NCBI GenBank assembly: GCA_021740225.1
Contig: JAIPAF010000003.1
Coordinates: forward strand, 1 to 37,330
Direction: 5' to 3'
DNA length: 37,330 bases
Source of the DNA: Bacteroidales bacterium
Lineage (GTDB): Bacteria > Bacteroidota > Bacteroidia > Bacteroidales > UBA12077
Under the pieces are notes generated by a model, which was given only the letters and a program-made list of their open reading frames with translations, was not told where the DNA came from and did not search any database. Shown here piece after piece: positions 1,860-31,254 of the stretch (positions within the stretch are counted from its first letter, which is position 1; every line of letters starts with the position of its first letter). The translations under genes and the position numbers were made by a program.

Positions 1860-1867
1860 TATATTTG
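1860..1867 (+). promoter_or_regulatory. Bacteroidota -7 promoter element (TATATTTG) for gltX
   Basis: Exact TAnnTTTG match ending 24 nt before ATG 1892. Confidence 0.6.
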
Positions 1868-1891
1868 CGCATAAAACAAAAAACAAATGAT

Positions 1892-6752: not shown

Positions 6753-6830
6753 GAGCTCAAAAGGTTTATTCATTCACCCGATAAGTAACTGTAGAAACAA
6801 AATGGTACTTAACGACCAAAAAAAGAATGT

Positions 6831-15313: not shown

Positions 15314-16213
15314 GTGGAAATTCACATTGATCAGTTAAACAAGGTTTATAACAAGGATTTTTATGCCCTGAAAGACGTTTCGTTGTCTATTGGCAACGGG
15401 ATGTTTGGCCTTCTTGGTCCCAACGGGGCCGGCAAATCCACTTTGATGCGAATCCTGGTAACTCTCATGAAGCCCACTAGCGGCAAGATTACTGTTGACG
15501 GAAAAAATATCCACAAACACCGAAAAGAAATTCGTAAGATGATCGGATACCTTCCCCAGGATTTTCGATTTTTCTCAAAACTGAAAACATGGGAATTTTT
15601 GGATTATTCTGCTGCCTTATCGGGGATGACCAACAATAAGCAGCGCAAAGAAGCGGTTGATCAAATGCTTGAAGATGTTGGGCTTTTTGATGCCCGCGAC
15701 CGACAGGCAGGAAAGCTTTCGGGCGGAATGAAACGCAGGCTTGGAATTGCCCAGGCCCTCATCAACGATCCCAAACTGATCGTGGTCGATGAGCCTACAA
15801 CCGGTCTTGATCCGGACGAACGGATTCGCTTCCGTAATCTGTTGTCGAAAATATCCGGAGAAGAACGAGTAATCATTCTTTCCACCCATATCGTTGCAGA
15901 CATTTCCAGTACCTGCAACCAAATGGCACTACTCAGTCAGGGAGAAGTTGCCTTTCAAGGAACTCCCGAAGATATTACGGAAAAGGCCCGTGGCAGTGTA
16001 TGGAAGGTAATCCTTACCACCAGGGAGCTGGAAAAGGTAAAAGAGGAATACCCGGTTATCTCTACGGTCATGATGGAAAAAGGATGGGAAGTGATTCTGG
16101 TGGCCGATGACCTCCAAGGCTATCCAGGTGAAAAGATAGAGCCCGACCTGGAACATGCCTACGTATACTTTATGGATAAAGAATTAAACGAATTCATGGT
16201 TAGTGAATATTAA
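15314..16213 (+). CDS. ABC transporter ATP-binding protein (DrrA/CcmA-like exporter type)
   Basis: GTG start; Walker A GPNGAGKST, Q-loop GYLPQ, signature LSGGM, Walker B VVDEPT, H-loop LSTH. Confidence 0.93.
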   Translation: MEIHIDQLNKVYNKDFYALKDVSLSIGNGMFGLLGPNGAGKSTLMRILVTLMKPTSGKITVDGKNIHKHRKEIRKMIGYLPQDFRFFSKLKTWEFLDYSAALSGMTNNKQRKEAVDQMLEDVGLFDARDRQAGKLSGGMKRRLGIAQALINDPKLIVVDEPTTGLDPDERIRFRNLLSKISGEERVIILSTHIVADISSTCNQMALLSQGEVAFQGTPEDITEKARGSVWKVILTTRELEKVKEEYPVISTVMMEKGWEVILVADDLQGYPGEKIEPDLEHAYVYFMDKELNEFMVSEY

Positions 16214-16224
16214 TCAATAAAACA

Positions 16225-19200
16225 ATGTTTTCTTTCAAAAATTTTAATACGGTTGCCCGGTTTGAGTCCAAAACACTCATGCGGAGCTGGTTCTTGCGTA
16301 TTTTTGCAATCATTGCCTTTATCGTACTGATCTTTTTTAATATCCTCGTTTCGCAGCAGGATTTTTCCCCCAGAGTGCTCAGAGGATTACCCACCAATAT
16401 TCCCTACGCATCCCTGTTGATATTTAATGTTATTCAGGCTGTTATAGCTGTTTTCCTTGCAACTGATTTTATGAAAAGGGATAAAAAACAGGATACAACA
16501 GAAGTAATTTACGTACGCTCACTTTCCAATGCAGAATATATTTGGGGCAAAGTATTTGGAAATTTAAAGGTTTTTCTCGGCCTGAATGTGCTTATCCTGC
16601 TTATTCCACTCATATTCACTCTGGTTACCCAGGATATGACACTAAACCTGTTGGGTTACGGCTTATATTTTCTTTTAATTTCACTGCCCACATTATTATT
16701 CATTTTTGGATTATCATTCTTTCTGATGGCATGGCTGAGGAACCAGGCTATCGTATTGCTTGTGCTGTTGGGCTACATTGCCTTAACCCTGTTTTATCTG
16801 GACGATAAGCTCTACTACATCTTTGATTACATGTCATTCAACATTCCCATGATATGGTCGGAATTTATTGGTCTGGCGGATTCTTCCCGTATTATAATGC
16901 ACAGGGCATTATACGTTTCACTGGGAATTGCAATGGTTTTCCTTACGGTTCTTTTAATGAAACGCCTTCGTCAGTCCAATTCGGCTTACTGGATTTCATG
17001 GACCGGCGGGATTCTATTCCTGGGAATTGCTGTATTCCTTGCTGCAAATCATATCGAAAAGGAGACTTCTATGCGCCAATTCCGGAACAAGTTGATCGCC
17101 CTGAATGATCAGTATCTTCAGAATAATTTGCCGAGGGTTCGGGAATATGATCTTGATCTTGTCCACAAAGGAGATAAGGTTCAGATGGTGGCTGAAATGG
17201 AAGTGCTCAATCCCACCGGCGAAAAGCTCGACTCTCTTATTTTCAGCTTAAACCCAGGATTTAAACTGAACAGATGTACCATTGATGGTCAAGAAAACGG
17301 ATACAGAAAAGACCATCATTTGGTTATTATCGATAAAACTTTGAAGCCCGGGGATTCAACTAATATCACTCTACATTATGCCGGCCGGCCAGATGAAAGG
17401 GTATGCTATCTGGATGTTCCAAACCGGCTTCTGTTCAGAGGCGAACATATGATCTTGTTCAGAATGCCTAAAAAATTCAGCTTCACTACTCCCGGTTATC
17501 TGATGTTTACACCGGAACTTTTATGGTATCCTGTAGCGGGAACTGGGTTCTCAACCAAAAATGTAGCGGGTTTCCGAAAGAATTTTGCAGAATATCAATT
17601 GACAGTAGAACCTGCCAAAAATATGACGGTACTCAGTCAGGGGAAAGCCGAAAGGGAAAACGAAAAATGGGTCTTTGAACCCGGAAAACCTATGACATGC
17701 ATGTCGGTTATTGCCGGAAAATACCAGCGGGATTCCCTTACGGTAGATAACATAACCTACAACATCTATCATAAAGCCGGTCATGACATATACAATCCCT
17801 TCTTTAACGATATCCGGGATACCATCCCATCGATCATTAAAACTGTAATGGGGAATTATGAGTCGGATCTGCATCTGGAATATCCCTTTGAAAATTTTTC
17901 CATTATTGAAGTACCGGCTCAATTTCATGCCTATAAGAAGAATTTCACCCTTGCCAATGAAGCTACTTTACCCCAAATGGTATTGATGAAGGAACGTGCA
18001 TTCTCTTTAGACGGTGCTGATTTTCCCCGGTCTTTAAGAAGAAGGCTAACACGGAGTGATAGGGATCGTTCGGCTGAGGATATAAAAGCCGAATTGTTCA
18101 GGCAATTCATTCAGTCCAACTTTATCGAAGGTGAGGATTTTCGCAGGGGGTGGTTCAGAGCCGAGGACATCAGTGGCAACACAAAAATATTCCCCAATTT
18201 TATTTCCTATACCAATGATTTTGGAGTTAAGGAACTTCCCGTGATGAATCCGGTCCTTGAGCGATACATAGAAAGTCGCAGCACAGAAGAGGACAGGAGC
18301 AGATTCTTAGGTAACGACGGAGTGGGAGAAGAAGAGAGAGCAAATCTTCTGTTGAAGAATAATTCATTCGCCGAGTTGATGAGCGATACAGCCCATTTTG
18401 TCCGTCTCAGTGATGTAATCGATATCAAAGGGAGTTACTTTATTGATCTGATGAAGCATTTCTCAGGAAATTTCGACTTCGATCCGGTGCTTGACAGCTT
18501 TATTGTAGCTTCGCGCTATCAAAACAACACCGGTGAGATATTCCTGGATTACATGAAAAACAGATATAATGTAAACACAGAAAAGTATATGAACGACTGG
18601 CTATATTCCAAACAGTTGCCTGCATTTGAATTCACCGATATGGATGCTTACTCTTATTATGAAAAGGAGCGGCCCAGGTATCAGGCAGAAATTACCATCA
18701 CAAATACAGGCAAAGGTTTGGGTATCGTAAATTTGAACATGCGTATAGGACGACGGAGAAACAGCAGTTTGTCGGAAGAAAAGACGGTCATCCTGGATCC
18801 GGGGCAAAGCAAAAGAATCGGATTGTCTGTGGGTGAAGAACCCTCCATGTTAATTGTCAATACGCTTGTCTCTTCCAATTTGCCTTCCACCCTGAATTTT
18901 CCTTTGCAGGATATTAAAGAAGACAAGGATGCCAATGGCGGTGAATTTATCCGGGAGGTGGAACCGCCTTCCTCCGGGGATGAAGCCATTATAGTAGACA
19001 ATGAGGATCCTTCGTTCCGTGTCTTAGTCCCTGAAAAAGCTATAAAGCTGAGGGACCTTATTCAAAACAACCAAAGCCGGGAAGAATATACAGGGGTAAA
19101 TCCCTGGCGTCCACCGGAAGAATGGCAAAAAGCCATCCACAGCAAGTTTTACGGAGAGGTCAAATTATCGGCCAATTATGTCAGAGCCGGTAATGGAGAA

Positions 19201-19509
19201 CAAAAAGCTCTTTGGATGGTGCCCATAAAGGATGGGGGATACTACGAAGTACAGGCCTATGTCTCCGATGCAGGACTACAGCCACAATGGGGCCGCGGCG
19301 GAGAGAATAACGAAGAAAAACTTTATCATTATAAGATATTCCATGACAGCGGTGAAGAGGTTATTCCGGTTAATGCCAGAAACTATGAGGGCGACTGGGT
19401 CTCGCTGGGAGAATATTATTTTTCCCCGGATTCAGCAAAAATTCAAATATCCAATCAATCCAAAGCCAGAACGGTGGTCGCTGACGCCGTTAAACTAATC
19501 CAAAAATAA
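16225..19509 (+). CDS. ABC-2-type permease fused to an M1-aminopeptidase-like ectodomain (no HEXXH) and a C-terminal golvesin/xanthan-lyase-CBM-like domain
   Basis: About 275 aa polytopic N-terminus (ARFESKTLMRS, EYIWGK); YDLDL..LNPG..GDSTNITLHYAG..WYP pattern of M1-like N-domains; C-terminal IVDNED...WVSLGEYYF...VVADAVK. Confidence 0.65.
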   Translation: MFSFKNFNTVARFESKTLMRSWFLRIFAIIAFIVLIFFNILVSQQDFSPRVLRGLPTNIPYASLLIFNVIQAVIAVFLATDFMKRDKKQDTTEVIYVRSLSNAEYIWGKVFGNLKVFLGLNVLILLIPLIFTLVTQDMTLNLLGYGLYFLLISLPTLLFIFGLSFFLMAWLRNQAIVLLVLLGYIALTLFYLDDKLYYIFDYMSFNIPMIWSEFIGLADSSRIIMHRALYVSLGIAMVFLTVLLMKRLRQSNSAYWISWTGGILFLGIAVFLAANHIEKETSMRQFRNKLIALNDQYLQNNLPRVREYDLDLVHKGDKVQMVAEMEVLNPTGEKLDSLIFSLNPGFKLNRCTIDGQENGYRKDHHLVIIDKTLKPGDSTNITLHYAGRPDERVCYLDVPNRLLFRGEHMILFRMPKKFSFTTPGYLMFTPELLWYPVAGTGFSTKNVAGFRKNFAEYQLTVEPAKNMTVLSQGKAERENEKWVFEPGKPMTCMSVIAGKYQRDSLTVDNITYNIYHKAGHDIYNPFFNDIRDTIPSIIKTVMGNYESDLHLEYPFENFSIIEVPAQFHAYKKNFTLANEATLPQMVLMKERAFSLDGADFPRSLRRRLTRSDRDRSAEDIKAELFRQFIQSNFIEGEDFRRGWFRAEDISGNTKIFPNFISYTNDFGVKELPVMNPVLERYIESRSTEEDRSRFLGNDGVGEEERANLLLKNNSFAELMSDTAHFVRLSDVIDIKGSYFIDLMKHFSGNFDFDPVLDSFIVASRYQNNTGEIFLDYMKNRYNVNTEKYMNDWLYSKQLPAFEFTDMDAYSYYEKERPRYQAEITITNTGKGLGIVNLNMRIGRRRNSSLSEEKTVILDPGQSKRIGLSVGEEPSMLIVNTLVSSNLPSTLNFPLQDIKEDKDANGGEFIREVEPPSSGDEAIIVDNEDPSFRVLVPEKAIKLRDLIQNNQSREEYTGVNPWRPPEEWQKAIHSKFYGEVKLSANYVRAGNGEQKALWMVPIKDGGYYEVQAYVSDAGLQPQWGRGGENNEEKLYHYKIFHDSGEEVIPVNARNYEGDWVSLGEYYFSPDSAKIQISNQSKARTVVADAVKLIQK

Positions 19510-19515
19510 ATCATT

Positions 19516-20997
19516 ATGATTCTAAAACGCTTTATTGCTATCTTTTTTTTATCTTTTTTGGTTGTATCAGCCGGCGCACAACAGTTGCTGACACTTGAAG
19601 AAGCGTTGGAAATTGCCAACGACAACAGCCCGGAAGTAAGAAAAAGCCGATTGAACAGGCAACGCAGCAAAAATTTTCTGGATGCGCAAAGGGCTTCGCT
19701 AAAAACCAATTTCAACCTTTCTCTTGAGCCTTTCAACTACTCAAGAGAAGAACGATTTTATGAAATGGAATCCAGGTGGCAAACCACCGAAATGTATTCC
19801 AGCATGGCCAATTTTAGCATTTCTCAGCCAATCACGCTTACAGACGGGGAACTATCCCTGAACAACCGGCTTGCCTGGCAACATTCCACCACGGAAGTAG
19901 GCACACAACTAAACGAAGATATTGCTTTCAGTAACAATTTGTTTCTGCAGTACGAACAGCCCCTGTTCTCCTATAATGAAACCAAACAGAATCTGGAAGA
20001 ACTGGAGCTGGATTACGAAAGGTCAGACATACAATACAGGCTTCAAAAGCTAAACACAGAGGTACAGGTAACCAGAAGCTATTATAATTTGTATGCCTCT
20101 CAAATGGCATTGGAAATATCCAGAGAAGAACTGAAAAATCAGAAGGAGAATTACCAGGTTGTGCAAAACAAAGTAGATGCCGATTTACTGGCCTTAGAGG
20201 AACTTTATCAGGCGGAAGTTAACCTGACCTCGGCACGTTCACAGGTTTATACCCGTGAAGTTCAGCTCCAAAATGCGAAGGATGATTTCAAACAACTCAT
20301 TGGAATGGATCTGGACAGAAATTTCAGGGTTGAACTCGATATAGAGATCGATTCGGTAGATATAAACATGGATAAAGCCATACAGAATGCCCTTGGATCT
20401 CGCCTGGAGATCCGCAACCGGGAGATCGAACTTCAAAACGCCAAGTTCAACCTCATTGAAACCAGTGACCGGAATAAATTTAAAGGAAATGTATCGGTTT
20501 CTGTTGGTGTTCAAGGAGTAGACAAACAATTTGCTGATATGTACGATGTACCTACAACCAGCCCTTCCATTTCGCTAAGCTTTAACGTTCCCATCTGGGA
20601 CTGGGGGGCTCGCGAAGCCCGTATAAAAGCTGCTAAATTGAATGTACAATCCAATCGGATTGATTTGAATGAGGAGTCCAAATCGATTAACCTGGGCATT
20701 CGCCAAACTATACGGAACCTAAGGAATTATAAGAATCAGATAGAGATAGCCAGAAAGAATCAAAAGAATGCCCAACTGACTTATGATATCAACCTGGAAC
20801 GGTACAACAGGGGTGATCTTACCGGAATGGATATTCAGCAATACCAGAACCAACTAAGTCAGGCGAAAATGGATCTGACCACAGCCCTCATCGATTATAA
20901 AATGGAACTGCTTAATCTTAAAATGCAGACGCTGTACGATTTTATAGAAAATGAACCGTTGCTCCCCAAAAATGTAGTTAACAGTATTTTAGAATAA
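19516..20997 (+). CDS. TolC family outer membrane efflux protein
   Basis: Signal peptide; LTLEEALEIA..NSP, YEQPLF, V.RSYYNL, ERYNRG, VPIWDWG; two-repeat OEP architecture. Confidence 0.9.
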   Translation: MILKRFIAIFFLSFLVVSAGAQQLLTLEEALEIANDNSPEVRKSRLNRQRSKNFLDAQRASLKTNFNLSLEPFNYSREERFYEMESRWQTTEMYSSMANFSISQPITLTDGELSLNNRLAWQHSTTEVGTQLNEDIAFSNNLFLQYEQPLFSYNETKQNLEELELDYERSDIQYRLQKLNTEVQVTRSYYNLYASQMALEISREELKNQKENYQVVQNKVDADLLALEELYQAEVNLTSARSQVYTREVQLQNAKDDFKQLIGMDLDRNFRVELDIEIDSVDINMDKAIQNALGSRLEIRNREIELQNAKFNLIETSDRNKFKGNVSVSVGVQGVDKQFADMYDVPTTSPSISLSFNVPIWDWGAREARIKAAKLNVQSNRIDLNEESKSINLGIRQTIRNLRNYKNQIEIARKNQKNAQLTYDINLERYNRGDLTGMDIQQYQNQLSQAKMDLTTALIDYKMELLNLKMQTLYDFIENEPLLPKNVVNSILE

Positions 20998-21002
20998 TAA
21001 AC

Positions 21003-22088
21003 ATGAATTGTATGCATACAAAAACTTTTTTCTTTTTACGAATCCTTTCCGCTATCACCCTCTTTGCGATGATGATTTCCGGGTGTAACCAGGGAGAGAT
21101 CAGCAGAGACAGTGATGTTGCCGTACCTGTGTCGGTTACGGAAGCCAATTATGAAGCCATTAGTGAATTCCTGCAAACCACCGGCACAGTGAATGCTGTT
21201 CATTCAGCAGAGCTGGTGACCAAAGTGGAAGGAGATTATTTTCTTCAAACCAATCCGAGAACCAACCAAAAGTTTGCCCTGGGTGATCAGATAAAAGAAG
21301 GGGAAACACTAATAAAGCTAAAAAACAGGGAATATGAGCTGGGTATTCAGATTGAATCAGTAAAACTGGAGCAGAAAATAGCCAAACAGGAATATGAAAA
21401 GCAACAAGCTCTATACGAAAAGGGGGGGGTGACCCTTCGGGAACTGACCAATGCCGAAAAAACTTATATCAATGCCCAGAATGCTTTAGAAGAAGCCAAA
21501 CTGAACCTGAACAAGCTTTCCGTAACCGCTCCCATCACCGGATTTATCACTCAACTACCCTACTATACCCCGGGAACCCATATGAATGCCAATACCAACG
21601 TTGCCAAAATAATGGATTACCGTGAATTGATGCTGGAAGTGAGTTTTCCGGAGAAAACCCTGCCGATAATTCAGACCGGCCAACAAGTAAGAATAAATCA
21701 TTATTCCCTGGATACAGCGCAAGCCCTTGAGGGTAGAGTAACGGAGATTTCTCCTGCTGTGGATCCGGACACCCGTATGTTTGATGCCAAAATCCGGGTA
21801 CAGAATCAACAAAAACGGCTTCGGCCGGGAATGTTCGTAAAAGCCAATGTTATGGTAGAACATAAAGACAGTGTGATCACTCTGCCGCGGGAAATCGTGC
21901 TCGAGAGAAACGACCGGCAGATCGTATATGTGGTCCAGCAAGACCGGGCCCATGAAAGAAATGTAGTAACGGGAATTGAATCCGGCGACAGGGTTGAGAT
22001 CATTGACGGGATTGAAGAGGATGAACGGGTGGTCACCGACGGCTACGAAACACTGAGGGACCGGAGTAGGGTGAAGGTGCTGCAATGA
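21003..22088 (+). CDS. RND efflux periplasmic adaptor (MFP), lipoprotein
   Basis: Lipobox-like ISGC; VTAPITGFI, ISPAVDPDTRMF, LRPGMFV, V.TGIE....VEI..G, VVTDG; start 21003 or 21012. Confidence 0.92.
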   Translation: MNCMHTKTFFFLRILSAITLFAMMISGCNQGEISRDSDVAVPVSVTEANYEAISEFLQTTGTVNAVHSAELVTKVEGDYFLQTNPRTNQKFALGDQIKEGETLIKLKNREYELGIQIESVKLEQKIAKQEYEKQQALYEKGGVTLRELTNAEKTYINAQNALEEAKLNLNKLSVTAPITGFITQLPYYTPGTHMNANTNVAKIMDYRELMLEVSFPEKTLPIIQTGQQVRINHYSLDTAQALEGRVTEISPAVDPDTRMFDAKIRVQNQQKRLRPGMFVKANVMVEHKDSVITLPREIVLERNDRQIVYVVQQDRAHERNVVTGIESGDRVEIIDGIEEDERVVTDGYETLRDRSRVKVLQ

Positions 22089-22089
22089 A

Positions 22090-22141
22090 GAATGTGAGAA
22101 TGCGTGAATGCGAGAATGTGAGAATGCATGAATGCGAGAAT
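22090..22141 (+). repeat. 8-bp tandem array (GAATGYRW) x6.5 with 24-bp higher-order period
   Basis: GAATGTGA GAATGCGT GAATGCGA GAATGTGA GAATGCAT GAATGCGA GAAT, starting immediately after the MFP stop. Confidence 0.92.
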
Positions 22142-22167
22142 AAAATAATAAAATTTAAGTAAGAAAG

Positions 22168-22539
22168 ATGACCGAAAAAGAAATTTTTATTGAAAAGTTG
22201 AAGAAAATTACAAAAGAATTCGCTGTAGATATAATTTTCTTTTGTAATGCATTGAAGACCTGCAAAGCATCATCGGTTGTTGAATATCAGCTTGTAAAAT
22301 GTGCAACCTCAACGGGGGCAAATTACAGATCCGCTTGCAGAGCGAGATCCAAAGCTGAATTTTTTAGTAAAATTTGCATTGTTTTAGAAGAAGCCGATGA
22401 GTCGGACTACTGGCTTGAGATAATAGATACTGCCGGATTATCTGATAACAAAAAAGAATTGACAAGACTCAGAAAAGAAGCCAATGAAATAATAAGAATC
22501 ATAGGAAAAGCAAAAAATTCATCTTTTCCTAACAAATAG
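22168..22539 (+). CDS. Four helix bundle protein (23S rRNA intervening-sequence protein family, TIGR02436-like)
   Basis: 123 aa; QL.K.ATS.GANYRSACRARSKAEFFSKI.IVLEEADES.YWLEI, EANEI..I; visibly AT-richer than its neighbours. Confidence 0.92.
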   Translation: MTEKEIFIEKLKKITKEFAVDIIFFCNALKTCKASSVVEYQLVKCATSTGANYRSACRARSKAEFFSKICIVLEEADESDYWLEIIDTAGLSDNKKELTRLRKEANEIIRIIGKAKNSSFPNK

Positions 22540-22583
22540 TTAAAATTCAACTATTCATGCGTACAATCATTAAAATCTCCATA

Positions 22584-22655
22584 CTTTCACTCATTCATAC
22601 ATTGAAGCATTCAAACATTCATGCATTCACGCATTTTAGCATCCAAGCATTTCAT
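22584..22655 (-). repeat. Degenerate 8-bp tandem array (CATTCAnG) x9, inverted relative to 22090-22141
   Basis: CTTTCACT CATTCATA CATTGAAG CATTCAAA CATTCATG CATTCACG CATTTTAG CATCCAAG CATTTCAT; its reverse complement contains AATGCGTGAATGC and GAATGCATGAATG, both found in the upstream array. Confidence 0.85.
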
Positions 22656-22705
22656 AACTAATATATCATAACATAAAGAACCACATTACAGATAAAAAGG
22701 ATTCC

Positions 22706-25700
22706 ATGATAAAACTAACCCGCTTCTCAGTAAAATACCCGGTAACCATTACAATGCTTGTTTTTGCAGTCCTGCTTCTCGGTTACATCTCATTTAACCG
22801 CCTGGGGACGGACTTGTTTCCCGATTTAAGAAATCCGCGGTTGTTTGTAGAACTTCATTCCGGAGAAAAACCCCCTTCGGAAATTGAATCGAGGTTTGCA
22901 GAAAACATAGAAAGTCTGGGTATACGCCAAAACGGAGTGACCGATGTTTCCACGGAGATTGGTACAGGAAGGATGTTAACCACCATTCATTATGAATGGG
23001 GACAGGACATGAATGCTGCCTTTCTTGATCTACAAAAAGCACTTTCTTCTGTGGCCACCAATCAGGAAGTGGACGAGCTTAACATCTACCAGAACGATCC
23101 CAACGCCGCACCCATCATGAGGGTAATCGTCAGTAATGCGGACATCAATGATATGAATCTGCTGCGACAGACGGCGGAGAATTATATTTATAACCAGTTG
23201 GTGCGGCTGAATGGAGTGGCCGATGTTGAACTCTCCGGTGAAGAAGAGGCGCAACTGCTCATTCAAACGGAAAGCTATCTTATGGACGCTCACGGTCTAT
23301 CCATGGACGAGATATCTTCCCGTATTCAGGCTTTCAACCGTGATATCAGCGGGGGTACGCTTGAGGAAAAAGGAACGGAATATCTCATCACGGGAGAAAG
23401 TTTATTGGGAAAGGTGGAGGATTTTCGCAACCTGATTGTGGGATACCAGCAGAAAACTTCCAGAAACAATGAGCGCACTCAAATTCCTGTCACCCTTGAA
23501 CAAGTGGCTGATGTGCAAATGAAAAACAAAGACCCTGATAACATGGTTTACTTCAACGGGGAGCGGTGTATCGGACTTGCCATTTACAAGGAGCAGGGCA
23601 AAAACACCGTGGATATAGTAAAATTGGTAGACCAGGCCCTGACTGATTTAAACAAGGCTTTGCCGGGCTACCGGTTCACCGTTGTAGAAAACCAGGGAGA
23701 ATACATTGACCAGGCCATTGGTGAAGTAGAAAACACTGCCCTTATCGGTATTTTATTGGCGGTTTTCGTGCTTTTCCTATTTTTACGGCGATTGCGTGTA
23801 ACGCTCATTGTTTCGGTGGCCATCCCCATATCAATCATTGCCACTTTTAATCTAATGTATTTTAACGGTTTAAGCCTAAATGTAATGACATTGGGTGGTC
23901 TTGCCCTCGGGGCCGGTATGCTGGTGGATAATGCCATTGTAGTAATCGAAAATATATTCCGCCACATCGAAGAGGGTTCCTCTGTGAAAGATGCTGCCAT
24001 ACAAGGCACGGCAGAGATGGGAGGAGCCATTACAGCCTCTACACTCACCACCATCGTAGTATTTTTACCTATTGTATACCTGCATGGTGAATCGGGCGAA
24101 TTATTCAAGGAAGAAGCCTGGACCGTGGCATTTTCTCTCTTGTCCTCTCTTTTTGTTGCTCTGCTTGTTATTCCGGTAATGACGGATAAGTGGATCAAAG
24201 CGGAGCGGAAAAAAACATTGAAATCAGTAAATATAGGGTGGTATGGCCGGTGGCTGAGCGGGATTCTCAACAAGCGATGGCTCGTTATTGGACTCAGTGC
24301 AGGTTTGATCGGCTTTGCCGCTTTATTGCTGCCGCGCGTGGGAAGTGAATTCATGCCCAAATCCCAGGGTGGCGCATTTGCTGTTTCAATAGAACTTCCC
24401 GGCGGTACCCGTTTGGAGAAAACAGCCAGGGTGGGCCGGCAGGTGCAGGCTATGATGGACGATGCCTTTGGTGATAAAGTGTCCTATTATTACCTGCATG
24501 TGGGACCCGGAACTGAAGAAGATGCTGCTACTACAGAACTAATGCAGGGAAGCAACTTCGCCAGCATTCAGGTACAACCCAAAGAGGGGGCGGTCATCCG
24601 CCCCGAAGAGGTGATTGCATTGACCAACTCCTCACTAGGTGATGTATCGGGCCTGAAAATAGAATACAAACAAAAACAAACAAGCCTGGATGAGATTCTG
24701 GGAACCGATGCATCTCCCCTTGTCGTCCAAACTTCCGGAGAAGAGCTGGAACAGATCGAATCGATCACCGAGAATATTCGTAAAGAACTTACAGGCATTG
24801 AAGGATTGTATGACGTAAAAACCAATTTTGATAAGGGCGCACCTGAAATTGAAGTCCGCGTAGACCGGTACCAGGCGGGAATGTACAATATCAGCCTGGA
24901 TCAGATAGTCAATCAGATTGAAAGGCAATTGACCGGAATGGAAATAGGGGAGTTCGACAGGGAAGGAGAGATGACCGATATTACCCTGAAATTACCTGAT
25001 TTGAGCAGAAAAGACCTTGAAGAGCTGGAGTTGAGATCGGGGAATCAGGTTATACGGCTGGACCAGATTGCCACCTTCCATACCGGTCAGTCACCGGGAA
25101 AGATATACCGGGAAAACCAAAAACGGGTGGGTAAAGTAATGGCCCGTATTGAAGAGGATATAACCCTGGATCGTGTGGTCAAAAAAGTAAATGCCAAACT
25201 GGCCGGGATAGAATTCCCAGCCCGTTATCAAACAGAAATCACAGGAGAAGAACAAAAGAGAGCAGAATCTTTCGCAAGTCTAAAATTTGCACTCATACTC
25301 TCCATCATTCTGGTATATATGGTGATGGCCTCGCAATTCGAAAGTCTGCTACATCCCATGACTATTCTGCTTTCACTGCCTCTTGCTTTCACCGGTCCCG
25401 TATTTTTATTTCTTGGAATAGGTGAATCATTTAACATCATAGCATATATTGGCATTATCATGCTGGCAGGAATAGCGGTGAACAACAGCATCATCCTTGT
25501 TGATGCCATCCGCCGGTATCAGCGACAGGGAATGGTAAAGCGGGATGCCATATTACAAGCCGGGCAAAACCGTATAAGACCCATTGTGATGACCAGCATT
25601 ACCACCATTCTGGCGCTATTACCGTTAACCATTGACTTCGGTCAGAGTGCCGAGCTCCGTTCCCCAATGGCCTGGGCTGTTATAGGAGGTTTGATCACAT

Positions 25701-25789
25701 CAACCATCCTTACGCTAGTGACCATCCCTTGCGTGTATTACATTTTTCAGCGAAAAGAAGTATTGTCAAATCCGGAAGATCAGGAATAA
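22706..25789 (+). CDS. RND efflux transporter permease subunit (AcrB/MdtB family)
   Basis: 1027 aa; AIPISII.TF, LN.MTLGGLALG.GMLVDNAIVVIENI, ASTLTT..VFLP, VYMVMASQFES, RIRPIVMT, PMA.AVIGGL. Confidence 0.95.
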   Translation: MIKLTRFSVKYPVTITMLVFAVLLLGYISFNRLGTDLFPDLRNPRLFVELHSGEKPPSEIESRFAENIESLGIRQNGVTDVSTEIGTGRMLTTIHYEWGQDMNAAFLDLQKALSSVATNQEVDELNIYQNDPNAAPIMRVIVSNADINDMNLLRQTAENYIYNQLVRLNGVADVELSGEEEAQLLIQTESYLMDAHGLSMDEISSRIQAFNRDISGGTLEEKGTEYLITGESLLGKVEDFRNLIVGYQQKTSRNNERTQIPVTLEQVADVQMKNKDPDNMVYFNGERCIGLAIYKEQGKNTVDIVKLVDQALTDLNKALPGYRFTVVENQGEYIDQAIGEVENTALIGILLAVFVLFLFLRRLRVTLIVSVAIPISIIATFNLMYFNGLSLNVMTLGGLALGAGMLVDNAIVVIENIFRHIEEGSSVKDAAIQGTAEMGGAITASTLTTIVVFLPIVYLHGESGELFKEEAWTVAFSLLSSLFVALLVIPVMTDKWIKAERKKTLKSVNIGWYGRWLSGILNKRWLVIGLSAGLIGFAALLLPRVGSEFMPKSQGGAFAVSIELPGGTRLEKTARVGRQVQAMMDDAFGDKVSYYYLHVGPGTEEDAATTELMQGSNFASIQVQPKEGAVIRPEEVIALTNSSLGDVSGLKIEYKQKQTSLDEILGTDASPLVVQTSGEELEQIESITENIRKELTGIEGLYDVKTNFDKGAPEIEVRVDRYQAGMYNISLDQIVNQIERQLTGMEIGEFDREGEMTDITLKLPDLSRKDLEELELRSGNQVIRLDQIATFHTGQSPGKIYRENQKRVGKVMARIEEDITLDRVVKKVNAKLAGIEFPARYQTEITGEEQKRAESFASLKFALILSIILVYMVMASQFESLLHPMTILLSLPLAFTGPVFLFLGIGESFNIIAYIGIIMLAGIAVNNSIILVDAIRRYQRQGMVKRDAILQAGQNRIRPIVMTSITTILALLPLTIDFGQSAELRSPMAWAVIGGLITSTILTLVTIPCVYYIFQRKEVLSNPEDQE

Positions 25790-25798
25790 GCCTTCACT

Positions 25799-28700
25799 AT
25801 GAACAAATTTGTAAAGCGAAAAATACTGGTCTCCATGCTGTTCCTGGCTTTAGTCATGCTGGGAATCTTTTCCTATCGATCGATGCCGGTTGAACTATTT
25901 CCAAGCGCCGAAACACCGGTACTCTATGTCCAGGTAAACTACCGTTCCCAAATAAACCCTCATTTTGTGGAAAAGGATGCCATCATTCCCCTGGAGGGGA
26001 TCATCAGTGAAGAAGAAGGTGTTGATGAGCTGGAATCGAACATTTCACAAAGGCGGGCAACCATTGTGGTTACCTTCAGGCAGGATGTGGACATCAACTA
26101 TGCTTATCTGAAGCTGGAGCAAAAGATACAGGAGTTTCAGCGGGAACACCGGGAAAACTATATGGTAAACCTGGTCAAGGTCAATACCGACATGTCCTCC
26201 AACCAGTTTATGACCATCCAGGCGCGGGGTGAAGGCGATATCGACCGGATTCGGAATGTCGTTGATCAGGAGATCCTTTCCGATCTGGTGGCAGTGAATG
26301 GCGTAGGTGATGCTACGGTTCAGGGAGGACAGGAACGATCCGTTGAAGTAATTTTTGATGAGGAAACCTGTGAGGCCCTTCACATCACACCCGGAAGGAT
26401 CAATAACCGGCTCAATATGTATTCCAATCAGCGGCTATATGGCGGGATGGTCTATGATGTGGGCAAACGCTGGATTGTAAACGTATCCGGTGAATTAACC
26501 AGCATCAATGAACTAGGGGATATCATACTGGATGACAACGGTAACGTTCGTCTGCAGGATGTGGCTACAATCAACATGGGAAAAAAAGAGCGGGAAACCA
26601 TCAGCCGTGTAAACGGCATGGAAGCAGTGACCATAACGATCTATAACGACGCCAATGTAAATGATATCACACTCTACCATAAGCTACAGGATGCCATAGA
26701 AAATATTAACTCGGAGATGGCTTCCAATCGAGTTGAACTGGTTATCCAGAGCTGTGAGGCTGAAACCATGGAAGAGAACATGAATCAGATACTCAGCCTT
26801 GCTTTAATCGGCGGATTACTGGCCATCTTCGTCCTATGGATATTCCTGCGGAACATACGTTTGGTAGTTGTTGTGGCGCTTGCGATACCCATTTCCATCT
26901 TCGCCTCGATTAATTTTCTCTATGCTGCCGGCATTACCATCAACACGCTCACTTTAATGGGTGTGGCCCTGGCCATCGGGATGCTCCTGGATAACAGTGT
27001 GGTGGTGCTGGAAAATATCTATCGGTTAAGGACAGAAGGTGCCACTCCAGTAGGTGCTGCATCCGGAGGAACAAGACAGGTGATCCGTGCCGTGACGGCC
27101 GCTACTCTTACAACAATAGCCGTTTTTCTGCCCTTTGCATTTTCTACAGAGTTCTTCATTAAACTCTTGGGGAACAATGTGGGGTTTTCCATTATTTTTA
27201 CCTTGCTGGTGTCGCTTCTTGTGGCACTAATATTTATACCGATGGTGGTATACCAATTCCTCAAAGCCCGCAGGAAAGCCCTGACCCTCCATTCGATAAA
27301 TTTTCGAAAACCAATAATTCGCGGATACCTGATATTGTTAAGATTTTGTCTGCGCCATCCTGCCCAGGTGCTCTTTACCATGGTCTTGCTATTTTTTGCC
27401 GCAGTAGTGATTAGTCTGTCAGTTAGTGTAAACACCCTACAGGAAGCGGAAACAGACAGTTTTCGGGTTTCAATCACCATGCCGGGGGGTACAACCCTGA
27501 AAACCTCCGATGAAACGGTAAGCAATATGGAGGACGATCTCGGAAATATAGAGGAGATTGATGAAGTAGTCAGCAACATTGAAGCAGAAGAAGCTTCCAT
27601 GATCATCCAATTGAAGGAAGAGTTTAAAAAGATCAACGACCGGAGTGTAGCTCAAATAAAAGATGATGTACTGAATAGGCTGGATGTATATAACAACGTT
27701 CATGTTAGCATTACGGACATGACCTCGTCTGATGACAGCAACTTCAATATTGGAGGCGGTGCTTCAGATTTTTTGAGTTTCATGGGTGTCGGACAACAAA
27801 CGGAAGAGGTGCTCATCAAGGGTTCGAATTATGAAGATATGGTTTTGGTTGGTGAAAATGTAGAGTATATACTTTCTGAAGAATCGGATAATGTAACCTC
27901 GGCGCGCCTGCAAATATCGCGTGAACAGCCGGAGGTGAGGGTACTTTTCGACCAACGCCTAATGGAGGCTTTAAATATAGATTACACCAGTGTGCAACAG
28001 GAGATGAACGCTTTCTCCAGGCAACTCGAGAGTGGTATGACCTTTAAACAGGGTGATGAGGAATACGATATTACCATACGCAGCAAACAGGCTGAAGAAA
28101 ATCAAAAAGAACAAAAAGGCATGGAAGATCTCCGGCATTTGCTCATAGATGCTGACAATGATAGTGTTGTTTCCTCCCATCATCTAATGGATTTCAGTTC
28201 CCTGCGCTATAGTGAAGGAATTGCTTCCATTCACCGGCAAAACAGGGAAAAAAGCATCTCGGTAAATTACCGCTTTTCATCTGAAATCAATGAAGACAAT
28301 GATTTGCTGGAGAGTGCCCGTGCCGAAGTAGACGAACTGATTTCCGGTTTATACGTTCCACCGGGAGTAGCGGTAGAAGTACAGCATGAGCAGGATCAAT
28401 ACGGTGAATTCAAAATGCTTATTCTTGCTGCCTTTATACTGATCTATATGATCCTTGCTTCCGTATTTGAAAGCTTTTCCACCCCATTCGTCCTGTTGTT
28501 TTCCATACCCTTGGCGGCCATCGGATCGCTCATGGGGCTCATTTTAACCGGAAATTCCCTGCTCAATGCCAATACCCTTATTGGGTTTCTCATCCTCCTG
28601 GGAGTGGTGGTCAATAATGGGATCATACTGATTGATTTTGTGCAAAATATGAGGTTCAATGGAGCCAGGATTGCACGAGCCGTTATCAGTGCAGGATTGC

Positions 28701-30514
28701 TTCGTGTGCGCCCGATTCTCATTACCGTGATCACCACAGTTATAGGAATGCTTCCACTGGCCATGGGACAGGGCGAATATGTAGGTAGCATTGGAGCTCC
28801 TTTTGCCATCACAGTGATTGGCGGGTTGCTGTTTTCCACCTTGTTCACACTGGTAATCATTCCCACCGCCTACTACGCAATGGAAACCACCCTTCGTTGG
28901 TTTGCTTCGCTTCCGCTTCACATCAAGATCATCAACTGGATGCTTTTGCCGGCAGGTATAGTGCTGGCCATCATAGAGGCGGATACCCTGCTGTGGCAAA
29001 TGGTTGGCGTGGTTGCCGTATTGACTGTTGTGCCTGCAACGACCTGGTTTTTCACCGAAAGCCTGCGTAAAGCATCAGCGGACGTAATCGACAGAAATAG
29101 TGACATCGTTATCCGTATCCGAAACCTGGTAAAAATCTATGACCGGCCTTCAAGACCCCTGCGTGAATGGCTGGGGAACAAGCATCTGAATGAACTCCTT
29201 GGTATGGGAGAAGAAAAACAAAATTCACGTCAGGAGCTGATATGGCAGATGCCGCTTCTGGGCTTCCTCGGATGGTTTGCCTGGTTTTATCAGTCGGGGG
29301 GATTTTGGACATACATCTTATCTGTGGCGTTATGGTTTTACTTAATTTTCCTGATTAAACGTCTCATTACCCTGTTTCCCTCATCCCGTGTTAAAAGATG
29401 GTTTTCCCGGCTGCATTGGATTGTTCTTCGGTTTTTCCCTCTTGTTATACTCGGAGTCTATCAAATCAAATTCACGAATACGGGAGCCACGGTTGTCTGG
29501 GGATTACTCACTTATTTCCTTCTGGGCATTTATCTTACTTCACAACACCTCAAGGAAAACCGGGTGAACACCGCCCGCATCAAAGGGCGTTTTGCCGGTC
29601 TGAAAAAACTATGGATAAACCTTGTGCGCGCCGTGCCGATGATCGGTCGTGAGCGAAAGCCTTTCAAAGCGCTGAAGAGTGTCTCGATGGATATCGGTCA
29701 TGGAATGTTTGGCCTGCTTGGCCCCAACGGAGCAGGCAAGACAACCCTGATGCGGATTATATGTGGTGTGCTGGAGCAGAGCTATGGGAAGATCACCATC
29801 AACGAGATCGATACCCTTGAAAAACGGGAAGAATTGCAGGGGTTGATCGGATATTTGCCCCAGGAATTCGGCATGTATGAAAATATGACCGCCAGGGATT
29901 ACCTGGATTACCAGGCCATACTCAAAGGTTTGCACAATCCGCAAACCCGTAAGGAAAGGGTGGACAATGTATTGCAGTCGGTTCACATGATTTCCAATGC
30001 CAATAAAAAGATCGGTTCGTTCTCAGGGGGTATGAAACAACGGATAGGAATTGCCCAGGTATTGCTGAACCTACCCCGTATACTGGTGGTGGATGAGCCA
30101 ACAGCCGGACTGGATCCCCGTGAACGCATCCGCTTCCGAAATCTTTTGGTAGAGCTGAGCAGTGAACGGGTAGTGATCTTCTCTACCCATATTATCGAAG
30201 ATATTGCCAGTTCGTGCAACCAACTGGCAGTGCTTGACAAAGGAAACCTGAAATATTACGGAAAACCGGCTGAGATGGCATCACTGGCAAAAAACAGGGT
30301 ATGGCAGTTTGATGTTCCGGCAGAACAATTTGAAGGGATAGCCCAGGATTTGAAAGTGGTTCATCATATAAGAAAAGGAGAAAATATCCGTGTGAGGGTA
30401 GTGAATCCCGACAAGCCGCATGAAAATGCCCAAAATGTTACTGCTGTGCTTGAAGACGCCTATATATGGCTCCTGAACTTCAGCGGAAAAAACAATACAA
30501 TTCAATCATCTTAA
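25799..30514 (+). CDS. RND permease fused to a C-terminal ABC ATP-binding domain
   Basis: aa 1 to about 1030 full RND (GMLLDNSVVVLENI, YMILASVFES, RVRPILIT); extra TM helices; then GPNGAGKTT, GYLPQ, FSGGM, VVDEPT, FSTH in the same uninterrupted 1571-aa ORF. Confidence 0.9.
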   Translation: MNKFVKRKILVSMLFLALVMLGIFSYRSMPVELFPSAETPVLYVQVNYRSQINPHFVEKDAIIPLEGIISEEEGVDELESNISQRRATIVVTFRQDVDINYAYLKLEQKIQEFQREHRENYMVNLVKVNTDMSSNQFMTIQARGEGDIDRIRNVVDQEILSDLVAVNGVGDATVQGGQERSVEVIFDEETCEALHITPGRINNRLNMYSNQRLYGGMVYDVGKRWIVNVSGELTSINELGDIILDDNGNVRLQDVATINMGKKERETISRVNGMEAVTITIYNDANVNDITLYHKLQDAIENINSEMASNRVELVIQSCEAETMEENMNQILSLALIGGLLAIFVLWIFLRNIRLVVVVALAIPISIFASINFLYAAGITINTLTLMGVALAIGMLLDNSVVVLENIYRLRTEGATPVGAASGGTRQVIRAVTAATLTTIAVFLPFAFSTEFFIKLLGNNVGFSIIFTLLVSLLVALIFIPMVVYQFLKARRKALTLHSINFRKPIIRGYLILLRFCLRHPAQVLFTMVLLFFAAVVISLSVSVNTLQEAETDSFRVSITMPGGTTLKTSDETVSNMEDDLGNIEEIDEVVSNIEAEEASMIIQLKEEFKKINDRSVAQIKDDVLNRLDVYNNVHVSITDMTSSDDSNFNIGGGASDFLSFMGVGQQTEEVLIKGSNYEDMVLVGENVEYILSEESDNVTSARLQISREQPEVRVLFDQRLMEALNIDYTSVQQEMNAFSRQLESGMTFKQGDEEYDITIRSKQAEENQKEQKGMEDLRHLLIDADNDSVVSSHHLMDFSSLRYSEGIASIHRQNREKSISVNYRFSSEINEDNDLLESARAEVDELISGLYVPPGVAVEVQHEQDQYGEFKMLILAAFILIYMILASVFESFSTPFVLLFSIPLAAIGSLMGLILTGNSLLNANTLIGFLILLGVVVNNGIILIDFVQNMRFNGARIARAVISAGLLRVRPILITVITTVIGMLPLAMGQGEYVGSIGAPFAITVIGGLLFSTLFTLVIIPTAYYAMETTLRWFASLPLHIKIINWMLLPAGIVLAIIEADTLLWQMVGVVAVLTVVPATTWFFTESLRKASADVIDRNSDIVIRIRNLVKIYDRPSRPLREWLGNKHLNELLGMGEEKQNSRQELIWQMPLLGFLGWFAWFYQSGGFWTYILSVALWFYLIFLIKRLITLFPSSRVKRWFSRLHWIVLRFFPLVILGVYQIKFTNTGATVVWGLLTYFLLGIYLTSQHLKENRVNTARIKGRFAGLKKLWINLVRAVPMIGRERKPFKALKSVSMDIGHGMFGLLGPNGAGKTTLMRIICGVLEQSYGKITINEIDTLEKREELQGLIGYLPQEFGMYENMTARDYLDYQAILKGLHNPQTRKERVDNVLQSVHMISNANKKIGSFSGGMKQRIGIAQVLLNLPRILVVDEPTAGLDPRERIRFRNLLVELSSERVVIFSTHIIEDIASSCNQLAVLDKGNLKYYGKPAEMASLAKNRVWQFDVPAEQFEGIAQDLKVVHHIRKGENIRVRVVNPDKPHENAQNVTAVLEDAYIWLLNFSGKNNTIQSS

Positions 30515-30540
30515 AACAAGGAGGAAATTTTCAAACCAGT

Positions 30541-31254
30541 ATGGTAAAACTGATAAAACATTGGCTTATCAACTCCGTGCAAATCACCCGGCACAACCTG
30601 AAAATCATATTCGGGGATAAATTTCCCTTCTTCCTGTTGGGGGCATTTGCCATATTCATCTTCATCGTGTTAATCAATTTGTTCGGGGGTGATCCGTTCA
30701 CCAGTGAATCGGTTTATTCACTGCTGGTCTTTGAAGGGATCATCATCGTATTTTTCCCCACCATCTATGCGGTACAGACGGATATTGACAAACGGACCAT
30801 AGAGATTCTTTTCGGCATTCCCGATTACCGTTATAAAGTATGGCTAGTACGCCTTCTGATCGCCTTCATCGTATGCTGGGTTCTTCTGGCGGTACTGGCC
30901 CTGATGTGCTATTTCGCACTGGTCAGTTTTCCCGTGGGCACCATGATCTATTATGTCATCTTTCCGGTTTTTGCCCTGGGAAGCCTGGGATTCCTCATTG
31001 CAACCCTGGTAAAAAACGGAAACAGCGCTGCGGTTGTAGCTATAATCATTGGTTTGGGCTTATGGGTATTATCCGAGGCATTGGTAGATAGTCAGTGGAA
31101 CGTCTTTCTCAACCCGTTTGATGAGGCCGATATGGCCGGACAAATATGGGAAGCTACCATAAGGAAGAACCGCCTGTTCCTTTTCGTTGCCGGAGTGGTA
31201 TTTCTTGTGGGTGGTTTACTAGGTCTCCAGAACCGGGAAGGGTTTATGCAGTAA
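30541..31254 (+). CDS. ABC-2-type transporter permease
   Basis: About 6 hydrophobic helices; D.D.RTIEILFGIPDYRYKVW..RL loop typical of ABC-2 TMDs. Start ATG 30541 preferred over 30466, which overlaps the upstream gene. Confidence 0.7.
   Translation: MVKLIKHWLINSVQITRHNLKIIFGDKFPFFLLGAFAIFIFIVLINLFGGDPFTSESVYSLLVFEGIIIVFFPTIYAVQTDIDKRTIEILFGIPDYRYKVWLVRLLIAFIVCWVLLAVLALMCYFALVSFPVGTMIYYVIFPVFALGSLGFLIATLVKNGNSAAVVAIIIGLGLWVLSEALVDSQWNVFLNPFDEADMAGQIWEATIRKNRLFLFVAGVVFLVGGLLGLQNREGFMQ

Follow-up and report, generated by a model that had tools for sequence, protein, structure and literature searches.

How is the ATPase domain of an ATP-binding cassette (ABC) protein put together when its first strand is parted from everything that follows by some 170 residues containing hydrophobic helices? 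This question was raised by a 37,330-nt stretch of DNA from a Bacteroidales bacterium (GenBank assembly GCA_021740225.1, contig JAIPAF010000003.1, positions 1 to 37,330 of the forward strand), the whole of which is referred to below as the window. It contains a plus-strand open reading frame (ORF) of 1571 aa (25799..30514), delimited from the ORF list and Pfam matches, in which a resistance-nodulation-division (RND) permease, a transmembrane (TM) hairpin and a split ABC ATPase follow one another in a single polypeptide. A first-pass annotation of the window had proposed that a membrane bundle was inserted at the A-loop of the ATPase, between the first and second beta-strands of its nucleotide-binding domain (NBD). 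The locus is best, and in our estimation quite probably correctly, explained as an RND permease that continues into a membrane-embedded, topologically split but whole ABC ATPase within a conserved seven-gene unit. It is a genuine and conserved variant, built from known parts, of which the literature searched gives no description.

The split nucleotide-binding domain

The AcrB-type RND domain with its 12 TM helices occupied aa 2-1028 (25802..28882, plus strand) and matched PF00873 (ACR_tran) over its full length (profile positions 3-1020 of 1021, 552.8 bits, E = 1.8e-165), and PF00005 (ABC_tran) was assigned to aa 1292-1436 (101.1 bits against a cut-off of 25, E = 1e-28). Between TM12 of the RND part and the first strand (beta1) of the NBD, hydropathy and an AlphaFold2 (AF2) model pointed to two further TM helices (aa ~1040-1060 and 1064-1093; helices 11-31 and 35-64 of the model, pLDDT 93-97), which form an extra hairpin designated TM13-14 (aa ~1040-1093; 28916..29077, plus strand). 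This hairpin did not figure in the first-pass annotation and is an addition of the present analysis; with TM13-14 upstream and the helices of the insert downstream, beta1 is flanked on both sides by membrane segments. In public annotations such proteins appear either as "efflux RND transporter permease subunit" or under a double AcrB/ABC-ATPase name.

The peptide IRIRNLVKIYD (aa 1105-1115; 29111..29143, plus strand), which carries Tyr1114, and the beta2 side of the gap, which begins with FKALKSVSMDIGHGMFGLL (FKALK) at aa 1289 (nt 29663), were located exactly where the first-pass annotation had put them. An 11-column beta1 profile, built from 37 unfused ATPases only, found its best site in all 1571 aa at 1105-1115 (16.7 bits; runner-up, 6.4 bits), a score attained by 4 of 2000 shuffles of the fusion protein. 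The motif lies 203 aa upstream of Walker A in the fusion of the window, and 191-213 aa upstream of it in 115 of 115 homologues of at least 1400 aa, which were taken from the best 120 matches listed after five fragments shorter than 1400 aa had been left out; fusion homologues of ~1550-1600 aa made up the majority of these best 120 matches listed. Of the representatives from an exhaustive search, 36 were at least 1300 aa long and contained only one Walker A, and the motif was found 190-235 aa upstream by pattern in 27 of them, by eye in P0166 and P0178, and at 55-81 aa in the other seven. Across an alignment of 60 sequences reaching down to ~30% identity, K1112 was invariant, and L1110 and Y1114 were kept in at least 90%. 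In the family alignment the information per column amounted to 3.07 bits for beta1 and 3.16 bits for the NBD core, as compared with 1.77 bits for the insert.

For the structural analysis, aa 1030-1571 were modeled by AF2 with the 60-sequence alignment (mean pLDDT 90.5, pTM 0.79; model residue 76 corresponds to aa 1105). Model residues 76-85 (aa 1105-1114) were assigned as a strand with pLDDT 90-95. When VIA-align was run on the 998 alignable chains of Foldseek's 1000 top-ranked ones, the 50 matches listed gave Z-scores of 26.8-29.8, and all 50 of these alignments began at model residue 68-75 and with the first residues of the solved NBD. The closest, TM0544 (1vpl; Z 29.8, root-mean-square deviation (rmsd) 1.5 Å), had 235 of its 238 residues aligned with model residues 74..531, which leaves no room for a solved beta1 without a counterpart; 4yer_B (TM_1403) followed with Z 29.7. 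In a control fold of aa 1030-1289, from which the NBD was omitted, residues 76-85 turned into coil (pLDDT 70-77) and the helices stayed at pLDDT 94-98, indicating that the strand exists only as part of the NBD sheet.

These predictions support the canonical beta1 place in the NBD sheet for the displaced strand. The strand profile, the conservation in all 115 homologues and the AF2/VIA placement together bear out the proposal of a membrane bundle at the A-loop between the first two strands, and the possibility that the NBD would be complete without the upstream strand was not realized in the model, where the strand packs into the domain. Taken together, the profile, the conservation, the predicted structure and the control fold establish that IRIRNLVKIYD is the first beta-strand of the NBD with its adenine-stacking A-loop Tyr. 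The fused NBD does not have the contiguous beta1/A-loop expected ~30 aa before Walker A, and its predicted fold nevertheless includes beta1 and is complete in the model, so that it is to be regarded as a split member of the ABC fold and not as a non-member.

The rest of the NBD from beta2 onward, together with a C-terminal domain, was encoded at 29663..30511 (plus strand) as judged from Pfam ABC_tran, the motifs and Foldseek/VIA. It contained Walker A (GPNGAGKTT, aa 1308-1316; 29720-29746), the Q-loop (YLPQE, aa 1352-1356; 29852-29866), the signature (FSGGMKQR, aa 1408-1415; 30020-30043), Walker B (ILVVDEPT, aa 1428-1435; 30080-30103), the D-loop (AGLD, aa 1436-1439) and the H-loop (FSTHI, aa 1461-1465; 30179-30193), all located by motif position and those with nucleotide coordinates on the plus strand. 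With all catalytic motifs present, the NBD is, to judge from its sequence, catalytically intact. As a separate observation, one full-length fusion representative (P0157) has a degenerate Walker A (GPNAAGKTT) and retains both beta1 and the insert.

The best NCBIfam models for the fused NBD were GldA (E = 1.9e-53) and DrrA (E = 2.3e-48), at scores below the curated cut-offs of the GldA equivalog TIGR03522 (181.9 against 402.6 bits) and the DrrA subfamily TIGR01188 (165.1 against 312.45 bits). An unsplit paralogue is encoded in the same window as a free ABC ATPase of 299 aa (15314..16213, plus strand; Pfam, BLAST), which starts (V)EIHIDQLNKVYNKDFYALKDVSLSIGNGMFGLL and shares 43% identity with the fused ATPase over 275 aa by BLAST; the alignment begins at K14 of the free ATPase and K1287 of the fusion, directly past the insert. 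Its orthologue, with ~61% identity, occupies the same place in two Marinifilum genomes. The unsplit ABC-2-type ATPases, including this paralogue, TM0544 (1vpl), TM_1403 (4yer) and the GldA and DrrA models, have the same NBD fold and motifs as the fused domain, but they are soluble and unfused, and their beta1 is contiguous, mostly lying 30-37 aa before Walker A, with 31-32 aa the commonest distance.

The membrane insert and its shorter counterparts

By sequence comparison, the insertion between beta1 and beta2 comprised 173 aa (29144..29662, plus strand), close to the ~170 aa first annotated; it sets in two residues past the A-loop Tyr and includes 10 of the 18 Trp residues of the fusion protein. 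It opens with a cytoplasmic helix (aa 1119-1133; 29153..29197; AF2 helix 90-104) bearing a conserved R..REW in the consensus. Four TM helices follow, namely helix 1 (aa 1141-1164; 29219..29290; AF2 112-135, hydropathy core 119-136) with a conserved W-Q-x-P-L-L..F..Y-F, helix 2 (aa 1168-1192; 29300..29374; AF2 139-163, core 140-158), helix 3 (aa 1196-1225; 29384..29473; AF2 167-196, core 177-192) and helix 4 (aa 1228-1254; 29480..29560; AF2 199-225, core 198-217). A cytoplasmic return helix (aa 1266-1278; 29594..29632; AF2 237-249), with the consensus motifs GRF..LR and IP.IG nearby, then leads to beta2, all of these elements being on the plus strand. The family-averaged hydropathy profile showed four cores in the same places as the AF2 insert helices; this profile and the AF2 helices were used in place of per-sequence TM counting by a simple threshold, which was discarded owing to overlapping segments and counts of 0-9. 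The mean number of Lys and Arg residues per sequence was 7.4, 2.7 and 9.2 on the segments predicted to be cytoplasmic, whereas the two short outer loops had means of 0.3 and 1.0. The roughly four Trp-rich hydrophobic helices of the first-pass annotation were accordingly found to be four, and the even count places both parts of the NBD in the cytoplasm and not on opposite sides of the membrane.

Within the insert, conservation was highest at the cytoplasmic ends and in the first TM helix, and the middle helices were variable. A Pfam scan of the insert gave no family at threshold, no stand-alone relative was detected at E ≤0.01 among 36 candidate proteins of 95-303 aa, and an Atlas search with the insert gave no usable match. 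Derivation from the downstream permease was not supported, the hhalign probability being 0.1%, nor was derivation from TM13-14, for which hhalign gave 42%, a weak value that probably reflects TM composition.

Seven shorter RND-ABC fusions of 1389-1458 aa (P0167, P0183, P0191, P0193, P0215, P0235 and P0270) likewise combine an RND permease with the same NBD subfamily and carry an insertion at the same beta1/beta2 site. In these, however, the insert is soluble and of ~23-50 aa without hydrophobic helices, the TM13-14 hairpin is absent, and beta1 is located 55-81 aa before Walker A as compared with 30-37 aa in most free ATPases. They also have a conserved SWRW..FW segment past TM12 of the RND part.

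In a quick maximum-likelihood tree of the NBD core with SH-aLRT support and a midpoint root, all RND-fused NBDs fell on one side of a branch with support 95 (64 rows); the same side included one 301-aa row filed as free, which starts within the insert and has the appearance of a fragment. Support for the group of long-insert forms was 93 (55 rows), and the short forms were unresolved at the base, the short-insert rows P0184, P0193 and P0270 being misfiled as long in the tree labels. It is plausible that the fusion occurred once and that insertions arose repeatedly, or grew, at the turn between beta1 and beta2. Hits of 451-1264 aa were considered as stand-alone split ATPases and set aside, since most of them begin in RND sequence and look like fragments; P0138, P0148 and P0239 could be either fragments or stand-alone split ATPases.

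Predicted permease partner and conserved gene order

Directly downstream of the fusion, a 262-aa membrane protein with six TM segments (30466..31254, plus strand) is a likely ABC-2-type permease partner, as suggested by hydropathy, a weak match to ABC2_membrane_3 and a complex prediction. Its TM2-TM3 loop is strongly conserved. Against the ABC-2 permease profiles (PF12698 / PF13346), it scored 16.5 bits, below the gathering value of 31.6 (E = 0.0046, ABC2_membrane_3). The last 49 nt of the fusion gene (30466-30514) are shared with the longest ORF of this protein; the relatives are of 233-259 aa, and the real start is therefore probably an internal Met ~25 codons in.

The complex of fusion aa 1099-1571 with this permease was predicted alongside three controls. 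The ipSAE was 0.75 (0.74, 0.77 and 0.75 in the runs), as compared with 0.00 for the best of the three controls; at least 96% of contacts were common between runs, and the partner pLDDT was at least 81. The mark applied to such predictions is reached by 58 of 80 solved complexes and by 2 of 110 mismatched pairs. On the NBD side, the confident interface consisted of model residues 290-297, 315-352 and 391, representing the Q-loop and the helical-subdomain face, plus Tyr85, which is Tyr1114; on the permease side, it consisted of residues 32-50 (N-terminal/elbow helix), 109-125 (TM2-TM3 loop) and 257-261 (C-terminus). Since this interface is of the textbook type between an NBD and a transmembrane domain (TMD), the pass may reflect likeness to solved transporters, and the prediction is to be read as indicating the kind of partner, not that binding occurs. 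With this proviso, the modeling strongly supports a canonical permease partner for the NBD.

The fusion and its partner belong to a unit at 15314-31254, which runs in the order free ATPase, 1094-aa protein, outer membrane factor (OMF), membrane fusion protein (MFP, the periplasmic adaptor), unfused RND, RND fused to the split NBD, and small permease. The 1094-aa protein (16225..19509), a candidate second permease, has ~7 TM helices at its N-terminus, a Golvesin_C domain (E = 5.8e-16) at its C-terminus and a large extracytoplasmic part, and matched no NCBIfam family. The OMF (19516..20997; Pfam OEP) and the MFP (21003..22088; Pfam HlyD_D23 and HlyD_3) were assigned from these families and from their conserved positions, and the unfused paralogous RND permease of 1027 aa (22706..25789; Pfam E = 5.3e-215) lies directly upstream of the fusion; all of these genes are on the plus strand. 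Within the seven-gene unit, a complete tripartite RND set is hence accompanied by two ATPases, one free and the other fused and split, and by two candidate permeases. Between the MFP and RND genes (22168-22539) there was also a small ORF assigned to the 23S_rRNA_IVP family (E = 6.4e-12); 6 of the 80 related loci described below (L004, L041, L046, L047 and L055 among them) had homologues of it, whose position in or near the module varied.

Relatives of the fusion were confirmed at 250 places in a collection with one genome per species, and the locus counts were drawn from 80 of them that were kept. These 80 were mostly from Bacteroidota (Bacteroidales, Marinifilum, Perlabentimonas, Prolixibacteraceae and Tenuifilaceae), with a few from Krumholzibacteriia and KSB1. 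A homologue of the small permease followed the fusion in all 76 loci with at least 800 nt of downstream DNA, and the unfused RND gene directly preceded it in 59 of the 60 loci with enough upstream DNA, the 60th having it split into two ORFs; the OMF and MFP genes precede the RND pair in related loci. The full seven-gene order was kept in two Marinifilum genomes, and a single homologue of the 1094-aa protein stood just upstream of the module in five of five further genomes. It is strongly supported that the fusion arrangement is under selection.

Proposed mechanism and alternative readings

As modeled, the chain passes TM12 of the RND part and is returned to the cytoplasm by the TM13-14 hairpin, where it forms beta1 of the NBD including the adenine-stacking Tyr1114. 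It then leaves the NBD for 173 aa, running through the cytoplasmic helix, the four TM helices with both ends inside and the return helix, and re-enters at beta2, completing an ABC-2/DrrA-GldA-like NBD with beta1 paired back into the sheet. The completed NBD is predicted to dock on the permease, with the Q-loop and helical-subdomain face of the NBD against the elbow helix and the TM2-TM3 loop. Only ~11-18 residues connect beta1 to TM14 and ~33 connect it to the insert, so that the adenine-binding edge would be leashed near the RND domain; in the mechanism that we prefer, TM13-14 and the four-helix insert would together act as a two-sided membrane leash on this edge, which would keep an ATP-driven ABC-2 exporter docked onto the transmembrane domain of the RND part. 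The RND/MFP/OMF duct could thereby receive substrate from the ABC part, and NBD closure and RND cycling might also communicate with each other by way of the insert.

Of the functions conceivable for this arrangement, leashing or docking with relay of substrate to the RND duct, the insert perhaps also coupling NBD and RND, appears to us the most likely, a tentative preference to which we would give somewhat less than an even chance. The anchoring or transmission role, the relay of substrate and the stoichiometry are what we infer from the arrangement of the parts. The first-pass annotation had likewise surmised that the insert fixes the nucleotide site at the membrane and might link it mechanically with a partner, which may be so; the confident contacts of the permease, however, fall on the classical NBD face and Tyr1114, and not on the insert helices.

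Several points weigh against this interpretation. RND pumps are trimers and ABC ATPases are dimers, a mismatch that needs a reconciling stoichiometry; a 2:1 heterotrimer that includes the unfused RND might provide it, as might association of the free ATPase with the fused NBD. No relative of the insert was detected among the 95-303-aa proteins, in the Atlas or, by hhalign, in the permease, and in a wide VIA search the TM part matched only generic helical bundles, with Cry5B and HRD1 (both Z 8.6) and MrpF (Z 8.4) at the top, under the level that the tool holds meaningful for helical bundles. Insert residues 87-258 are in no confident predicted contact, residues that the tool does not name being uncertain, which leaves a docking or transmission role without direct support. 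In addition, the pairing of beta1 with beta2 was deduced from DSSP, the VIA ranges and the control fold without the NBD, not from measured hydrogen bonds.

The proton relay of the RND part belongs among these points as well. Of the AcrB set D407/D408/K940/R971/T978, the fusion keeps the equivalents of D407, R971 and T978 and has Asn in place of both D408 and K940, so that the full set is not present. The resulting pattern D,N,N,R,T was shared by the unfused paralogue and by all fused homologues examined (n = 15) but one, which had D,S,N,R,T. Replacement of D408 and K940 could be taken as a sign of ATP drive, but the module is not alone in this: two further RND genes of Marinifilum breve (L092 and L096) have the same D-N/N pattern, and the argument that ATP replaces the proton relay was dropped for this reason. 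A truncated RND of the source genome kept D-D. As judged from these sequences, the D-N/N pattern looks like a subfamily trait and not like evidence of lost function.

The insert could alternatively be a regulatory gate and not an anchor, a membrane-embedded counterpart of the regulatory insertion of CFTR, whose position, set by lipid, by a membrane-borne substrate or by the RND state, would control ATP binding or NBD dimerisation. This is a possibility of which we remain doubtful. It draws on the finding that the flanking cytoplasmic segments (R..REW, GRF..LR and IP.IG) are the best conserved parts of the insert, with the middle TM helices varying, and on the presence of Tyr1114 among the confident interface residues of the predicted complex; the sister clade, however, manages with soluble inserts of 23-50 aa, so that gating need not require membrane helices, and a gate overlaps with the split and leashed ATPase preferred here and does not exclude it. 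An extension of the 2:1 solution, which we hold to be unlikely, is a dual-energy machine in which two fusions and one unfused RND form an MdtB2C-like heterotrimer with exactly two NBDs. NBD closure would then drive or gate the RND cycle through beta1 and the insert, replacing the proton gradient or acting beside it, and the ABC-2 permeases would feed inner-leaflet substrate.

The six extra helices might, on the other hand, be the ATPase's own TMD, in which case the fusion would end in a half-transporter with beta1 in its TM2-TM3 loop and the downstream permease would serve as the second TMD of a heterodimer. Six is the usual helix number of an ABC-2 TMD, beta1 stands where the TM2-TM3 cytoplasmic loop of such a domain would be, and all six helices were predicted at pLDDT 94-98. 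The fold search, however, returned no ABC TMD among the 50 matches listed, which were generic bundles (best Z 8.6) spanning either 109-225 or 8-81, with 1dov (rmsd 22 Å) as one poor exception. The 0.1% hhalign probability between insert and permease family, the two permease candidates that the operon already has for its two ATPases, and the poor conservation of the middle helices also argue against an own TMD, and we consider it quite unlikely.

Far less probable is a reading of the upstream motif as the vestige of a duplicated or recombined ATPase start, with another segment filling the place of beta1. The Pfam and BLAST alignments of the NBD do start only past the insert; the motif, however, is conserved like the NBD core (3.07 against 3.16 bits) down to ~30% identity with K1112 invariant, it is present in all 115 long homologues, and AF2 put it in the canonical place, with the solved NBDs aligning from their first residues. 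An error of assembly or gene calling that joined separate genes into one long ORF can practically be discounted: the bin that represents the source genome is fragmented (132 contigs, completeness 57%), but the ORF has no in-frame stops, and continuous ORFs of ~1550-1600 aa occur in many independent assemblies, including those of cultured Marinifilum and Perlabentimonas and closed chromosomes.

Among known systems, the regulatory insertion in NBD1 of CFTR, a eukaryotic channel, is soluble and 32 residues long, and is reported to be disordered and not required for gating; the present insert, in contrast, has 173 aa with four TM helices, is predicted at pLDDT >90 and is conserved across a bacterial family. 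In ATPases of the Rad50/SMC type, the halves of the ABC domain are also separated by a long insertion and reunited in the fold, but the separating element there is a soluble coiled coil at a different site, with the Walker A half on one side and the signature/Walker B half on the other, and not a membrane bundle at the A-loop. MacB, of the MacAB-TolC system, is a self-contained ABC transporter whose NBD is fused to its own permease without an RND component, whereas the NBD described here has a covalent link to an RND permease and is interrupted by TM helices. MdtBC-type pumps likewise have two paralogous tandem RND genes with one adaptor, whereas here one paralogue carries an ATPase, and a heterotrimer is only hypothetical; the MdtB and MdtC models scored far under their cut-offs on the unfused RND paralogue. 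According to passages of a review of tripartite pumps, HAE-1 pumps are rarely heterotrimers "such as MdtBC" (PMC8277102). The MacAB-TolC system likewise contains an ABC ATPase with a periplasmic adaptor and an outer membrane factor, as noted in the same passages (PMC8277102). Full-text searches of literature outside subscription journals and supplements brought up no fusion of an RND with an ABC component and no NBD with a TM insertion, and a term search over the first 300,000 characters of the review likewise gave no such fusion and no such membrane insertion (PMC8277102).

The proton gradient is regarded as the sole drive of RND pumps, and ATP as that of ABC pumps. Tripartite systems are classed, in the passages of that review concerned with their types, by whether they contain an RND (proton-driven) or an ABC (ATP-driven) component (PMC8277102). 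A covalent hybrid would be a natural test case. Such a hybrid, which is widespread and has hosts in culture (Marinifilum and Perlabentimonas) that make it testable, could be used to test the coupling of inner-membrane and whole-envelope transport steps, and whether ATP gates or drives the RND cycle. The turn between beta1 and beta2, beside the adenine-binding Tyr, apparently tolerates a whole membrane domain, well beyond the short soluble loop of CFTR, and the insert would offer a built-in handle on how movement of the A-loop edge relates to catalysis.

Elsewhere in the window, two class I aminoacyl-tRNA synthetase genes of the Glu/Gln type (1865-3436 and 4998-6773) lie close together on opposite strands, one of them with an Anticodon_2 domain and the other with tRNA-synt_1c_C domains.

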